Origin: a virus
Length of the DNA: 64,000 nt
Direction: 5' to 3' (one strand)
Virus record (IMG/VR): IMGVR_UViG_3300050821_007134
Coordinates: 1-64,000 of that record
The translations under genes and the position numbers were made by a program. This document shows, piece by piece, positions 25,890 through 56,923 of the stretch (within the stretch, counting starts at the first letter, position 1; each line of letters begins with the position of its first letter). Under the pieces are notes generated by a model. That model did no database searches. It worked only from the letters and a program-made list of their open reading frames with translations, and had not been told where the DNA came from.

Positions 25890-26717
25890 TCATAAGTTAT
25901 GCTGCTCCGCAATAAAAGATTTAATAAATTTAAACAATTCGGCGCCTAGCGCCTTTCTAATAGCCTTCATCTCGTCATCGGTACCCGCAATCTGACCTTC
26001 CTTGATTAAATCGTTGGTATAGTCGGCGCAGATATTCTTAATGGAAGACGGGTACTCTCTTAAGTAGACCTCGTCACGCGACAGGAGCTTCTCCAGGCGC
26101 ATTGGCTGTAAAAGATGTGAAACATCAGGGCCAGCCGGTCTGGGCTCACCCTTGGGGCGATCAGGCTTTTTCCAGGCAGTTTCTTCGGCCTTAAAGACTT
26201 TTTTGAATCTTAAATCGGTGCCAAGCAAATGAACAACGATTCCTTCTGGCGACATGTATCCAGGAACCAAAGCTGAGCCCTTTTCACGCAGTGTGTTAAA
26301 AGCTTCATTGATAGCTTCAGAACTGAAGGGACCTTTATAAAGTAGGGGAACACCGACTACACGATTAGGAAGCGGCTTACCATCGATTCTGGCGATATTG
26401 AACACGGCGAAGACCTTTTCTGTAAGACCTTCACTAGAATTGATGCCAGGGCCTACCCATTCTCCGAACCAAGTACCTTCGCCAAGTTTTTCGATGAGTT
26501 CTGCTTTATTATCTTCAACGAATCGTGCAAAACCAAAATTGTCGTCGTCTACAGTAAGCCAGCGGTTACGGGAACCGGCTTTAATATCATAGGTTACTCT
26601 GTCCCCATCGGAAACTTGATAAATCAAAATTTGGGCATTCGTACCATGAAGTTTTTGGGTAATAGTGACAGCGGCCTTCCCGATTTGCTTTACATCGGGA
26701 AATGACTTAAATTCCAT
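25890..26717 (-). CDS. RNA ligase, Rnl2-like family
   Basis: Motif I TQKLHGTNA, plus GSRNRW, DNFGFA, FGEWVGPGI and PEGIVV. Confidence 0.8.
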   Translation of the reverse strand: MEFKSFPDVKQIGKAAVTITQKLHGTNAQILIYQVSDGDRVTYDIKAGSRNRWLTVDDDNFGFARFVEDNKAELIEKLGEGTWFGEWVGPGINSSEGLTEKVFAVFNIARIDGKPLPNRVVGVPLLYKGPFSSEAINEAFNTLREKGSALVPGYMSPEGIVVHLLGTDLRFKKVFKAEETAWKKPDRPKGEPRPAGPDVSHLLQPMRLEKLLSRDEVYLREYPSSIKNICADYTNDLIKEGQIAGTDDEMKAIRKALGAELFKFIKSFIAEQHNL

Positions 26718-35195: not shown

Positions 35196-35525
35196 TCAGA
35201 AGTTGTTATTATTTGGCTTCTTGTGTCTAATCTTCTTGGGAAGGCGATGATCCTGAAGCATATGACCGAAACTATCTTCCAAATTGGTAAATTTGTACAT
35301 GATATGACTCATATTAAGAATCCATAGCGCCGAAAAATATAACCCAGCACTAGTGTTCGGGTTTCCTCGTTCTAAGCTCATGACCGTAGGGCGTGAAACT
35401 GACATCTTCTCAGCAACTTGCGCGATGGTCAAATTCTGTCTGCGACGCGCCATTCTTAGGAGTTCGCCTAGCTTCTTTAATGTGTCTTCCGCTGAACTTT
35501 GTAAATAAACCATAATGGAAACCAT
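35196..35525 (-). CDS. XRE/HipB-like HTH protein (orphan, no adjacent HipA)
   Basis: LGELLRMARRRQNLTIAQVAEKMSVSRPTVMSLERGNP; upstream palindrome AATGTAAACAATACTTTACATT. Confidence 0.85.
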   Translation of the reverse strand: MVSIMVYLQSSAEDTLKKLGELLRMARRRQNLTIAQVAEKMSVSRPTVMSLERGNPNTSAGLYFSALWILNMSHIMYKFTNLEDSFGHMLQDHRLPKKIRHKKPNNNNF

Positions 35526-39999: not shown

Positions 40000-40015
40000 T
40001 GGCACGGGCCATGCA
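40000..40015 (+). promoter_or_regulatory. sigma54-type promoter heading the early arm
   Basis: TGGCACGGGCCATGCA (GG-N10-GC), about 60 nt before an AGGAGG-ATG at 40076. Confidence 0.7.
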
Positions 40016-40164
40016 AATACTAATTATGAGACATACGCGGGCCACGGACTAAGGCCCTTCCCCTTAGGAGGCATTATGTTAAAGCTTTTGAAAAGATGGT
40101 TTAGAATACGCAATACCGAGCATGTTAAAGATCAGTTAGACCTAATTGAGCAATAGGAGAGAAT

Positions 40165-40419
40165 ATGAATACATTAGAGCTACGTGTCAAATTAGAAGAG
40201 GCTGGCCTGACTGTACGCCAAACAGAGGTCGTCTTATTGGTCGCTCAAGGCCTGTCAAACAAAGAAGTAGGCAACCAGCTATTTATCGCGCCAAAGACAG
40301 TCAAGTTTCACCTAACGACTGTTTATGGCCTGTTAGGCGTCAAAAGCAGGGCTCAATTAATCGTTTGGTGTGTACCACACTTGTACACTCCCATCATTCG
40401 AATAGAGGAGGCTGTATGA
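40165..40419 (+). CDS. Stand-alone LuxR/GerE HTH regulator
   Basis: LTVRQTEVVLLVAQGLSNKEVGNQLFIAPKTVKFHLTTVYGLLGVKSRAQL. Confidence 0.92.
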   Translation: MNTLELRVKLEEAGLTVRQTEVVLLVAQGLSNKEVGNQLFIAPKTVKFHLTTVYGLLGVKSRAQLIVWCVPHLYTPIIRIEEAV

Positions 40420-40661: not shown

Positions 40662-43600
40662 ATGCGTCAATACATAGTGTTTAGGGCTGATTTACAGCTA
40701 TTCGACTCATACGGCCAGCCGTGTATTGTCGAGGCTACTAACTTAAAGAATGCTCAATACATTGCAGTCAGGGCCTTTGGTTATGATCTAGGCAATATAC
40801 CGCTATCGGTTATTAGGTCAATTCGAGTCAGGCCATACAAGGAGGCTATCTAATGTTTGGTTATAGCTTAGTCAAGACTTCCATTCTAACTGAATTAGTC
40901 AATGTATCTACGGAGGCCCTCGACCATGTTGAGGCTAACGGAGGTTTTCTAAATGAGAAGAGGACCTTTGCAAGTGATGGTAATAATAAGGCCATTCAAG
41001 CGCATTGGAATTTATTTCATACTCTAACTAGGCGTTTCTTCTCATTAAAATACAAACTGTTAAAATAGTGCTAAAGTTTTTAAACAATCTCCCGATAAGT
41101 TAGATAGAAACAAAGGGGGTTATATGAGACAGTCTTTAAATGCCGATACAAGAGTCATACTAACTTTAGGGCTTGTCAATTTACTATCGACCATTAAGCT
41201 ATATGAGTCCGAGGTCCGTACCATTGGCGGTTATGGCATTGCAGTTGACCATCATCTAACAGACGCTGTTAACACTGCTATAGACACTCACAAGGCCAAT
41301 TTTAAAAGGGCCACACAAGAAACCTTGTCAACACATGCCGGTTTTATTCAAGAGTACGATGAAATAGTAGACCGAGCGTTACAATTGACAGCCATGCCAG
41401 TTAGTGTTTTTGAATCTTATCAATTTTCATAAGGGGGTTTAAAATGAGTGCAAGAAGTTTTAAAATGAACGTTTTCAACCGTAACCAAGGCCAGATCAGA
41501 GTCGAGCGCTCGTTAGAGGCTCAAGGTGTCGTTACCCGCGTCCAGATGTACCAAACCATCATCGTTGAATATTGGGTTAACCACATTGGCCCTAGCCCTA
41601 CTATCGTCTTAAATTCGGGAGGCTATCGAACGGCGTCCACAAAGACAGCCATAAATCAGGCATTGAGTCAATTAGTCTTGCCATGGAATGTTATTCAACG
41701 CAAGGGTCAATGGCTTGTAACTAACGGCGTCAAGACCTTTGATTTTATTGACGGCATTCAATTGGACGCAACCGGCATTGTATTAAAGGAGGCTTCATAA
41801 TGCCTAACCTATTGTTTTTAAAACTCAAAGACCACATAGGCCATAAAATTGAATGCGTTTACTACGGGCCAGCGGATAGCCCTTGCAATATAGCCATTGA
41901 ATGTGTCGATTGTTATATGGTTTTAGTTGACACTGACCTTGAGGAGATCAAATGAAATACTATAAAGAACAATTAAATCAATTAGTTGACGACCATCCTT
42001 ATTTTAAATCAATTCAAGTTAGGGATACCGTAGGCAATTCGACTCATTGTCTGGCCTTAAATATTGAGTCAATCCCAATATTTATAGCATTTTTGAAAAA
42101 AGAACAAAAAAGACTAAAGAATTTAGAACAAACAGCCGAGAAGTCCAATGGAGGGAATGAGAATGAAAACCAAGATCACACTTAACACGATGAAACTAAA
42201 TAATAAAACGCATCTCTTTGAACAAGTTGCAACCACGTCAATTGAGCAACCAACAATTAAACAAGCCGAGCGTTTCCTTAAGAGCTATCTCTATAAGTTT
42301 GACGCTATGCTTAGTAGTGGCCCTATCGACATTTGGTCAAAACGAACGGTAACTAAACAGGGCGAATACTTATTGCATGCCGAATTGAAGAGGGGCGCAT
42401 GAATTCGGTTTTCGTTGTTTCCATCGTTTTTGGCTTAGTCAGTCTAATAGGTGCCGCGTTTAGGCATTCATTAGGGCCATTGAAAAACTTCTTTGACACA
42501 TTGACCACATTCCTTGCATTGGCTGTACTGTTAACCGTGGCATTTACAATCGGAGTACAAGTTTGGGGCATTCGATGAAATACCTTTCAGCCTATGCCGT
42601 GGTCGATATACTCTTAAGTCTACCTATAGATCAATACGTTGTACCTGCAATAATTATTTACTTTATTGCTAAAGTTTTATTGCAACGCGCCGATAAGTTA
42701 AATAGGAGGGAGTTACAATGAAAACGAAACAAGGTTTAGTCGAGGTTAAACGAACGGTTATTGACACGGTACCAATTGGTTATTGGCTGGTAACGTTTGA
42801 CGCAATTTGGGGAGCACGTTGCAACGAAGGGCCACATAACTCTTGTGAGCAGCATGGTTGCATTGACAACGAGCCAGATTACATTGCAGACGTTGACGGC
42901 GCCATTAATAAGATCACACGACGAAACTACTATGAATTAGGCGCCAATGGCCTAACCATTAGCTCGAATACAAACGACCAACACGACGACACACACGATC
43001 TAAGGCCACGGCTTTTTAAAACGAAACAAGAGGCCAAAGAGCATTTGGAATACACTTTAAAGCGGTTTAAAAACCCTCAACCATGGGAGAGCTTCGTTAA
43101 AACAGCTTAAAAACTATGATTGAAACTCTTAAAATACAAGTGTTTACAATAAGTTGTCAGCTATTACCGATACTGATTAGGCTTTTAACGTAGGGAGTTA
43201 AAATGAATTCGAGCGAAGTAAACTGGTATAAAGAGAGACTTGCTGGCCTTGTTAAAGACTTGCAATTCGATCTTAAATACGAAAAAGACGTTGAAACAGT
43301 CCGTTACCTTCAGAATATGATTAGACACTTAAATTCAAGTGTTGAAGTCTTTAACCGAGTGGAAGGGACTGAAAACCAATGAAGAGAATAGTTTCGATGC
43401 TCATTGAAGTCGGAAACAAAGGGCCAGTCTATGCGTGGACCATTGGCATAGGCCTTGCACTAATTGCCCTGTCAATAACTGGTATGGTCGAAAACATTAT
43501 GAGGGAGTTACAATGAATACTAAACCGAACGTTCTAATTTTCAATGCATACGATGCGCTGGACGTTGAAAACGTTGATAAGACTATCTTGCAACATTACT

Positions 43601-43920
43601 CGGCATTACAAGAATTGCAACGTCAAGGCGTACCAGTGGTCGAGCTGCTCGGGCGAAACAATGGAACGAGTCAAATGTCAATTCTAGTGGTCGGGTTTCA
43701 ACACACGGACCTAGTTGAAACACTCGCTAAACAATCTGGCCAGGACTCTTATCTAAGGAGCCACGGAGACAGATATACAGAAAGAGTTAGCTTAAAAAAG
43801 GCACACGTTGAGTCGGTAGGTTACCTTAAACCCATTTCCGAGGACGGGGCATGGTTAAAAGGCACTTATGCGTATAATCCACAAACAAACACATTTTATG
43901 CATTGGAGTCGAGGCCATGA
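40662..43920 (+). CDS. Cluster of small early hypothetical ORFs (41124, 41444, 41952, 42718, 43203, 43513 and others)
   Basis: Strong GGGAG/GGGGG RBSs and coupled stops/starts. Confidence 0.55.
41072..41098 (+). promoter_or_regulatory. sigma28 (FliA)-type promoter
   Basis: TAAAGTTT-N11-CCCGATAA upstream of ORF 41124. Confidence 0.75.
42670..42696 (+). promoter_or_regulatory. sigma28 (FliA)-type promoter, perfect consensus
   Basis: TAAAGTTT-N11-GCCGATAA upstream of ORF 42718. Confidence 0.85.
43444..43459 (+). promoter_or_regulatory. sigma54-type promoter
   Basis: TGGCATAGGCCTTGCA upstream of the RBS and ATG at 43513. Confidence 0.7.
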
Positions 43921-44070
43921 AAGTTCTAATCATTGTCGCGCTATTTATTGGACTGACCACTTATTGTTTAACACAATGTATGATAAGTCCACAAAGAGCA
44001 CTTTCAATAATTCAAACCTTTGGAGGTAAATAGACCAGAAAGTCCACACTCCCCAAACCCCTAAACCCTG

Positions 44071-44102
44071 GCCCTAGGTTGTTTTCAGCCTAGGGCTTTT
44101 TC
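44071..44102 (+). terminator. Rho-independent terminator
   Basis: GCCCTAGG...CCTAGGGC hairpin followed by TTTTT. Confidence 0.8.
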
Positions 44103-44489: not shown

Positions 44490-44522
44490 TTTCAATAGTT
44501 TATGCGTGGCATCATAGTTGCT
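44490..44522 (+). promoter_or_regulatory. sigma54-type promoter with an adjacent IHF-like site
   Basis: TGGCATCATAGTTGCT at 44507-44522; TTTCAATAGTTTA at 44490; perfect IHF consensus at 44291-44303 (-). Confidence 0.7.
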
Positions 44523-44641
44523 TATTAATAAATCATGTAGGTTAAACAAAAGGCCGAGGAGGCTATATGTACTAGGCCAGCGAAAGTTGGCATTTGAGGG
44601 CTACGGAGGGCTCAAGTTTAACCCCAAACGTGAGGAGTTTT

Positions 44642-55562: not shown

Positions 55563-56120
55563 ATGAGAGTTAAACTTGTAGGTATTCCTACAGAGCAACA
55601 CAAGGCTGCACGACAAGCTATTAAAATGGTTGACCGATTAGTCTGGGGCAATGAGATGAAGAAAAAAGTACAGAAAATTACCGTAATCAAAAATAGCAAA
55701 GGTAATCCTTTGGATGCCCCTATCTTCAAGGGCATATTAGACGTTTACAACCATAAAACCAAATCTTGCGTTCTTCATATCCAAGCGTTGATCGAAATGG
55801 GCGCGAACGATGATGGCAATTTGGCTTGGTCCATATGCCACGATCTTTCTCATGCATTTGATGTTGCTCACAAAAATCTAATCTTTGACACCAAAAACAA
55901 AACTTTGATTTATCTAGGAAAAACCTATGATTTTAAGAAACCGGCTGTCCATTTGATTGACGAAGAATTTGCAAAGAAAAACCGATATAGAGACTCTCGC
56001 TATTATGCTGCTCACGACTTCTATGAGCCCTGGGAAGTCAGACCTTTGATGGCTGCCGACGCGTGTATGGCCGAAATAAGAAGAAAAGACTGTCCAAATT
56101 TACTTAAGGAGGCCGCATAA
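55563..56120 (+). CDS. Metallopeptidase-like protein with an HDXXH motif
   Basis: ICHDLSHAFD...YEPWEVRP. Confidence 0.45.
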   Translation: MRVKLVGIPTEQHKAARQAIKMVDRLVWGNEMKKKVQKITVIKNSKGNPLDAPIFKGILDVYNHKTKSCVLHIQALIEMGANDDGNLAWSICHDLSHAFDVAHKNLIFDTKNKTLIYLGKTYDFKKPAVHLIDEEFAKKNRYRDSRYYAAHDFYEPWEVRPLMAADACMAEIRRKDCPNLLKEAA

Positions 56121-56923
56121 TGCACGACGAATTAGGTAACAGACTTAAGAATCAATACGAGGATAGAACGCGTTACTTCTTGCCTCGTCGAACCTACACA
56201 ATCATTCGAATTGATGGAAAGGCATTCCATACATTCGCTAAACATTGCGAAAAACCCTTTGATAAAGATTTGATGGCATTAATGGACACGACCGCAAGGG
56301 CTCTATGCAAGGAAATACAAGGTGCAAAATTTGCGTATGTTCAATCCGACGAAATAAGTATTCTTTTAACTGATTTTGAAACCATTCACACAGATGCATG
56401 GTTTGACGGCAATATACAAAAAATTGTATCTGTAGCTGCTTCTCTGGCTACGGCACGCTTTAACGAAGAACTTCAGTTATTGGCCGAAAGTCAAAGTGGA
56501 ACTAAAGACAGATTTGATTTAAGCGCAAGGCCTGCCATGTTCGACGCTAGAGTATTCACCATTCCAGACCCTACAGAAGTAGATAACTATTTCAGATGGA
56601 GGCAACAAGACGCAGTTCGTAATAGTATTCAGATGGCAGCTCGGGCCGCATTCACTCATAGCCAATGCATGGGCAAAAACTGCGATGAACTTCAGGAAAT
56701 GCTATTTACGGCGAAAAATATCAACTGGAGTGAATACTCAGCTGGAGAAAAGAACGGGCGAGTAGTTATTAAAGAGGCATATCTAGCCCCAATGATTCAT
56801 AGAAAAGATGGACCTCCTGGCAATGTAGCAAGGACTCGATGGGTAGCCCAGGGAGCCCCAATTTTCACTCAAGACACGGCGTTTCTTAAAACTAAAATTC
56901 CAGTTATGAGTCAGGAGGACTAA
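56120..56923 (+). CDS. tRNA(His) guanylyltransferase Thg1-like protein (3'-5' polymerase)
   Basis: IIRIDGKAFH, KPFD, YVQSDEISI, FDARVF and WRQQDAVRNS. Confidence 0.93.
   Translation: MHDELGNRLKNQYEDRTRYFLPRRTYTIIRIDGKAFHTFAKHCEKPFDKDLMALMDTTARALCKEIQGAKFAYVQSDEISILLTDFETIHTDAWFDGNIQKIVSVAASLATARFNEELQLLAESQSGTKDRFDLSARPAMFDARVFTIPDPTEVDNYFRWRQQDAVRNSIQMAARAAFTHSQCMGKNCDELQEMLFTAKNINWSEYSAGEKNGRVVIKEAYLAPMIHRKDGPPGNVARTRWVAQGAPIFTQDTAFLKTKIPVMSQED

Follow-up and report, generated by a model that had tools for sequence, protein, structure and literature searches.

Two sites that match the promoter consensus of the flagellar sigma factor, sigma-28 (FliA), at both boxes lie in front of small genes in the virus genome IMGVR_UViG_3300050821_007134 of the IMG/VR database. 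The record comprises 171,073 bp and is rated complete; its first 64 kb (positions 1 to 64,000) constitute the window analyzed here, and its sole cultured relative is Myxococcus phage Mx1. Judging from the sequence, both sites very likely represent functional sigma-28-class promoters, and the factor that reads them is probably the FliA of the host. The complete explanation that we favor, with somewhat less assurance than its best-supported part, is that they are working promoters read by host RNA polymerase carrying FliA, probably early in infection, in a host from the Bdellovibrionota.

Two sigma-28-type sites in front of small genes

The two sites are as follows (position 1 is the first letter of the window; ORF, open reading frame; aa, amino acids).

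41072-41098, + strand: site 1, predicted sigma-28-type promoter, TAAAGTTT-N11-CCCGATAA, then GTTAGATAG; intergenic, the preceding stop codon being at 41066-41068
42670-42696, + strand: site 2, predicted sigma-28-type promoter, TAAAGTTT-N11-GCCGATAA, then GTTAAATAG; inside a 48-aa ORF

The -35 box TAAA(GTTT) is matched at 8/8 positions in both cases, and both octamers, the 11-nt spacing and the orientation, on the same strand as the downstream gene, agree with the sigma-28 consensus, as the original prediction had proposed. The placement was also described correctly, about 20-25 nt before start codons with ribosome-binding sites (RBSs) and followed by GTTARATAG: the end of the -10 box is 25 nt from the ATG at 41124 for site 1 (RBS AAAGGGGG) and 21 nt from the ATG at 42718 for site 2 (RBS AGGAGGGAG), with the purine-rich RBSs located between the -10 box and the ATG. 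The statement that both sites are intergenic applies to site 1, but not to site 2, which falls inside a conserved ORF (42575-42721). TGC in front of the -35 box and GTTA[G/A]ATAG behind the -10 box are common to both sites, whereas most spacer positions differ, which argues for a two-part recognition site and not for a duplicated segment.

A search for exact TAAAGTTT-N11-[G/C]CCGATAA returned exactly 2 matches in the 171,073-bp genome, compared with about 4e-4 expected by chance from a composition-based estimate for both strands of the whole genome. With up to two mismatches allowed, the 64-kb window contains 2 matches against 0.09 expected from shuffles; in the rest of the genome only two-mismatch matches were found at this threshold, all within late coding regions, and a relaxed whole-genome scan revealed no further credible sigma-28-type site. 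The scope implied by the original prediction, that of phage early genes under FliA promoters, is reduced to two promoters for about 11 small genes, which span 3 kb amid sigma-54-like and sigma-70-like sites.

The same cassette in related phages

Relatives of the phage were reached through a 130-aa protein encoded directly behind site 2, through a word-index protein search, which gave 380 homologues of a conserved 366-aa protein, and through alignment of a sigma factor encoded by the phage. Single-protein scans of IMG/VR with a 118-aa protein and with the 366-aa protein yielded no loci, and a DNA similarity search against GenBank phages returned nothing useful. A 16-kb IMG/VR contig reached via the 130-aa protein (G001) is syntenic with the window at 41.9-51.5 kb and carries four sites, all oriented with the genes. 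At no more than two mismatches, sites were found in G001 (4), L015 (2), L196 (4), G005 (2), G006 (4), G212 (2), G218 (2; a record of the same phage clade), G223 (5) and L239 (3), and none in the examined 13-21 kb of L014, L016, L194, L195 and L197. The distribution of sites among close relatives is patchy, with 0 to 5 per genome.

In a pool of 292 kb, consisting of the site-bearing loci of relatives and this genome, 35 sites were counted against 1 in the reversed-sequence control. Nearly all are oriented with the local genes, most precede an RBS-bearing start codon by 16-39 nt, and most sites of the relatives are intergenic. Conservation in the pool extends to positions that had not been selected for, namely a C before TAAAG and a G after CCGATAA (1.4-1.7 bits each), and the spacer does not exceed 0.5 bits per position. 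Upstream of the orthologues of the 130-aa protein in L238 (89% protein identity) and L239 (63%), both boxes and GTTAAAT are kept and the spacers have diverged. The cassette of L239 follows an unrelated gene, the stop codon of which falls inside the -35 box; the conservation of site 2 is, therefore, not merely a by-product of the peptide ORF that contains it. The sites in relatives cluster among blocks of small genes, in L015 at 2-4 kb from a strand switch.

A third, degenerate site had been placed at about 43147-43173.

43147-43173, + strand: degenerate site with a fair -10 box, ACCGATAC, and a TAAGTT box 9 rather than 11 nt upstream

The -10 box is indeed present, but the -35 box is two bases out of register and the site fails the relaxed sigma-28 scan. 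At the matching position after the 130-aa gene, relative L005 has the canonical TTAAGTTT-N11-CCCGATAA, and the counterpart in L238 is likewise degraded. Given the canonical form in L005, the third site is probably a decayed or weak copy of that promoter.

A perfect sigma-28-type site at L013 (G001) 751-777, on the - strand, is followed after only 6 nt by an ATG that lacks an RBS, and the mRNA may accordingly be leaderless. Two IMG/VR records that share no protein with this genome in the loci compared, G007 (161 kb) and G008 (118 kb, with terminal repeats), contain strand-coherent clusters of 7-11 sigma-28-type sites (at 130-158 kb and 83-92 kb, respectively), where the control gave 3-4 matches in each record. 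The extended motif, in its exact form, is present in 106 IMG/VR stretches.

A flagellated candidate host

The clue to the host is a regulator gene located upstream of site 1.

40165-40419, + strand: stand-alone LuxR/GerE helix-turn-helix (HTH) gene, 84 aa

Its closest counterparts, in two genomes of the Oligoflexia and one of the Bdellovibrionales, are 62-67% identical to it, and the next-best matches, from other phyla, reach 34-48%. A sample of 201 genomes was taken from the phylum to which an Oligoflexia genome belongs; the gene is matched at E 1e-10 or better in 40 of them, in 37 of these with 60-66% identity, nearly always once per genome and in many cases on contigs of megabase size. The two Oligoflexia genomes and the Bdellovibrionales genome each encode a FliA that passes the TIGR02479 cut-off. 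Flagellin_N has seven to nine matches in two of the three, most of them flagellin genes. Several of these flagellin genes are preceded by TAAAGTCT-N11-TCCGATCA, TTAAGTCC-N11-GCCGATGA and similar sequences; the pattern in front of flagellin genes of these two candidate-host genomes is TAAAGTnn/TTAAGTnn-N11-[G/T]CCGAnnn. With one mismatch at most, the consensus was counted 243 times in 101 genomes of the phylum, twice as often as in the reversed control (121). A flagellated member of the Bdellovibrionota is, consequently, the likely host; a Bdellovibrionota-type host, in line with the earlier mention of Bdellovibrio, is plausible by protein matching through this LuxR gene.

For Bdellovibrio bacteriovorus, Karunker et al. 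(2013) mapped 140 attack-phase promoters, of which 92 had the motif of FliA, and proposed FliA as the global attack-phase regulator (PMC3627812). In reporter assays in attack-phase cells of this species, FliA-type promoters tended to be the stronger ones (PMC12622784). Both reports agree with the premise of the original prediction that FliA drives much of the attack-phase programme in Bdellovibrio.

Proposed transcription of the region and points against it

The window has a G+C content of 41% and its coding strand switches near 40 kb: leftward genes occupy about 4.4-39.2 kb and rightward small genes about 40.1-59 kb. The first rightward unit (40.0-44.1 kb) begins behind a divergent region at about 39.3-40.1 kb, and contains the LuxR/GerE gene and about 15 orphan ORFs (ORFans) with no informative Pfam or PHROG match. 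The features behind the two sites are the following.

41124-42578, + strand: gene run after site 1, ORFs of 102, 118, 51, 77, 84/79 and 59 aa, tightly packed or overlapping, without known function
42575-42721, + strand: 48-aa hydrophobic membrane-peptide gene, with an ATGA overlap with both neighbors; its 3' third holds site 2 together with the RBS of the gene that follows
42718-43110, + strand: 130-aa Cys-rich protein behind site 2, function unknown
43203-43920, + strand: three further small ORFs of 59, 45 and 135 aa, up to the terminator
44070-44097, + strand: strong hairpin resembling an intrinsic terminator, with 12 pairs and a T run after them, at the end of the rightward unit (40.0-44.1 kb)

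In the proposed mechanism, host RNA polymerase carrying sigma-28 would read both sites, with the mRNA starting some 6-8 nt after CCGATAA and a 5' untranslated region of roughly 13-19 nt that would hold the RBS; the transcription start and the dependence on FliA are predicted from the promoter sequences. Site 1 would serve six or seven small genes (41124-42578/42721), and site 2 all genes from that of the 130-aa protein to the hairpin. No terminator was found before either site, and both would thus be internal promoters added to any read-through. Because they are located 1-3 kb inside the first rightward unit, beside the divergent control region, the two sites probably act at or soon after DNA entry, an early timing that we consider reasonably probable from their position. 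Two thirds of the attack-phase-specific promoters are of the FliA type in the one species of the phylum that has been studied (PMC3627812); since such promoters dominate the attack phase, the wiring would allow the genes behind the sites to be expressed in swimming, non-growing host cells. This attack-phase rationale presupposes a host with a predatory lifestyle, which we infer.

Several points weigh against this explanation. With only two sites, sigma-28 cannot run the main early programme, and promoter-like sequences of other classes occur in the same region.

40000-40016, 43444-43460 and 44507-44523, + strand: sigma-54-like sites (TGGCA[C/T]-N5-nTGC[A/T])
41039-41066, + strand: weak sigma-70-like site with a TG-extended -10 box (TTCTCA-16-TAAAAT), directly upstream of site 1

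All 3 strict sigma-54-like matches of the 171-kb genome fall within one 4.5-kb region, where about 1 is expected genome-wide, and the sigma-70-like site and site 1 possibly form a tandem promoter. Read-through from upstream is also possible, given the absence of a terminator. Site 2 overlaps conserved coding sequence (GCC GAT AAG TTA AAT, encoding ADKLN), to which its conservation in L238 may be partly due. Bdellovibrio promoters have TTAAG-N16-CCGATA as their published consensus (PMC3627812), compared with N15 in the phage and in the candidate-host flagellin promoters, which may be a difference in counting. The host assignment is drawn from one shared gene, and an unrecognized accessory phage factor may be at work.

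A wider and more tentative proposal, which we regard as possible although doubtful, is that a large clade of Mx1-like phages of about 170 kb infects Bdellovibrio-like hosts and starts part of the infection from host sigma-28- and sigma-54-type promoters, the likely reason being that the only host cells within reach are swimming, non-growing attack-phase cells, in which FliA dominates transcription.

Alternative explanations

The sites may be genuine host sigma-28 promoters of an accessory, moron-like kind, internal to the unit, that boost a few cargo genes when the host is motile and are dispensable for infection. The presence of two sites only, their patchy occurrence among close relatives and the possible read-through from upstream promoters are compatible with such a role, as are the downstream genes, which are small, variable ORFans shuffled between relatives. 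Homologues of the 102-aa and 130-aa proteins were, however, not found in the 201 genomes of the candidate host phylum, in which the LuxR gene used as a control was found in 40; these genes are thus not freshly captured host cassettes, a candidate origin that was ruled out on this basis. Where the sites are present in relatives, moreover, they keep to the blocks of small genes. We consider an accessory role unlikely.

Less probable still is that the sites are middle-type promoters read by a phage factor, either the phage's own sigma with or without a small 82-aa protein, or an early protein that redirects host polymerase, the match to sigma-28 being convergent. Redirection of host polymerase is known from MotA/AsiA of phage T4. 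A protein of the sigma-70 family, whose Mx1 counterpart is annotated as a sigma factor, is indeed encoded by the phage, as is the 82-aa protein, and the additional conserved C before TAAAG and G after CCGATAA could mark a specialized reader. Convergence would, nevertheless, require a chance match at all 16 consensus positions with exact spacing.

The phage sigma (344 aa; genome 111317-112351, L006:1318-2352) is a distant sigma-70 relative that matches TIGR02937 with E 8e-5 and a SigB/F/G model over positions 4-189 of 227. The annotated sigma factor of Mx1 is 33% identical to it, and in public data over 1000 homologues reach E 1e-10 or better, of which the 120 listed are 70-92% identical. Its AlphaFold model (mean predicted local distance difference test score, pLDDT, of 76) finds its matches among the primary sigma factors of RNA polymerase holoenzyme structures. 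According to the model and the alignment to a hidden Markov model, only two helices follow the 3.2 linker, which is disordered; domain 4 is incomplete and the protein appears to lack the HTH that reads the -35 box. Such a truncated sigma suits a -10-only motif, TAATCTTA, which recurs 20-45 nt ahead of genes of structural and other late types and precedes many structural genes at 65-105 kb.

Window 17247 and genome 65336, 67992, 72329, 73371, 77876, 91746, 91769 and 105427, - strand: copies of TAATCTTA

This motif is probably a -10-only late promoter read by the truncated sigma. It is not shared by Mx1, and is, therefore, of no use for tying the phage sigma to the motif at that distance. The 82-aa protein (genome 125477-125725, L007:978-1226) was found in each of the nine relatives for which enough sequence exists, which makes its gene a core gene of the clade, and it may partner the truncated sigma.

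A FliA-like protein was looked for in the phage and not found. A search of the phage with Sigma70_r2 gave no match, and the only Sigma70_r4 match in the genome is a 109-aa XRE/Cro-type HTH protein (35196-35525, - strand) in the leftward gene block. A phmmer search at full sensitivity with three host-clade FliA proteins against the phage ORFs reached a best E of 0.26, with no FliA-like sequence among the ORFs. A FlgM-like anti-sigma factor was also searched for in the phage and none was found.

The phage sigma and the 82-aa protein occur in every complete clade genome searched, including five (G209, G210, G211, G214 and G215) with zero sites at no more than two mismatches, and Mx1 has the sigma and zero sigma-28-type sites. 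The host of Mx1, Myxococcus, is not known to have flagella. The sigma-28-type sites and the phage sigma, accordingly, do not co-occur across the relatives. A core factor should have cognate promoters in each genome that encodes it; the patchy distribution of the sites thus points to a reader outside the phage core, and the host sigma-28 is the simplest choice. Recognition by a sigma factor of the phage, named with the original prediction as the finding that would overturn it, is disfavored on these grounds.

That the sites are not promoters at all, but chance matches or sequences conserved for coding or for another DNA-binding protein, is suggested by the overlap of site 2 with a conserved small ORF and is, nonetheless, highly improbable in view of the chance expectation for two exact matches, the excess over control in the relatives, the bipartite conservation with fixed spacing and fixed placement before start codons, the intergenic position of site 1 and of most sites in relatives, and the L239 cassette that follows an unrelated gene.

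Comparison with known systems

The sites resemble the class 3 flagellar promoters of E. coli and Salmonella (TAAAGTTT-N11-GCCGATAA) in that the octamers and spacing are identical and the sites are located just upstream of genes on the same strand. They differ in preceding ORFans instead of flagellar or chemotaxis genes, in their very short leaders, and in the conserved G after CCGATAA and C before TAAAG that the phage clade adds. The attack-phase promoters of B. bacteriovorus share the motif type (TTAAG ... CCGATA; PMC3627812), and the phage has its LuxR-type gene in common with that phylum; the published N16 spacing contrasts with N15 in the phage, and the matching Oligoflexia genomes are not known as predators.

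Textbook lytic phages start with the housekeeping sigma of the host, or bring their own polymerase or sigma. Phage-encoded sigma factors run the T4 late promoters (gp55/gp33) and a programme of SPO1 (gp28). The present phage is similar to these in having its own truncated sigma and the -10-only TAATCTTA upstream of structural genes. Its sigma-28-type sites, by contrast, are bipartite, match a host sigma and show no co-occurrence with the phage sigma across the clade.

Sigma-28 promoters have also been reported for flagellin genes of prophages, with FliC^P and a TldR repressor (bioRxiv 10.1101/2023.11.30.569447). In that system a promoter for the host flagellar sigma is likewise carried on phage DNA, but the gene served is reportedly a flagellin cargo gene of a resident prophage; here, ORFans in a presumed early region are involved, and a search of the phage for a tyrosine integrase (PF00589) found none. 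The literature on phage genes under host sigma-28 that we located comprises prophage cargo examples only, with none on the early region of a lytic phage.

If correct, our explanation would tie the onset of infection to a particular physiological state of the host, which for predatory bacteria is the free-swimming phase outside the prey, and would offer a testable idea for how phages infect non-growing cells. Under the wider proposal, that of an Mx1-like clade infecting Bdellovibrio-like hosts, early genes of a lytic phage would for the first time be shown to require a flagellar sigma factor of the host, and no large phage would have been linked to this host group before. The effect predicted for this genome is modest, as it comprises two promoters identified from sequence evidence. 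The sites could also aid host prediction for a large uncultured phage clade and provide compact, portable sigma-28 promoter cassettes for work in Bdellovibrio.

Proteins encoded around the sites and elsewhere in the genome

Among the products of the gene run after site 1, the 118-aa protein has a weak match to phrog_554/Kyano_Gp96. The 130-aa protein has 18 homologues, all of unknown function, in gene contexts that are phage-like where looked at. A hydrophobic ORF matching the 48-aa peptide is found at the same place in L238, and the 48-aa ORF was taken as a real gene for this reason; the gene calls supplied by the source of L238 contain no gene over this counterpart. The 59-aa (42399-42578) and 48-aa (42575-42721) ORFs form a pair of adjacent, ATGA-coupled hydrophobic peptide genes on the + strand, both of which are kept in L238.

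Elsewhere in the window, a Thg1-like tRNA-His guanylyltransferase (phrog_4717, E 4e-82) is encoded at 56120-56923 on the + strand and an RNA ligase (phrog_548) at 25890-26717 on the - strand, and the two proteins together suggest a kit for tRNA repair or maturation.

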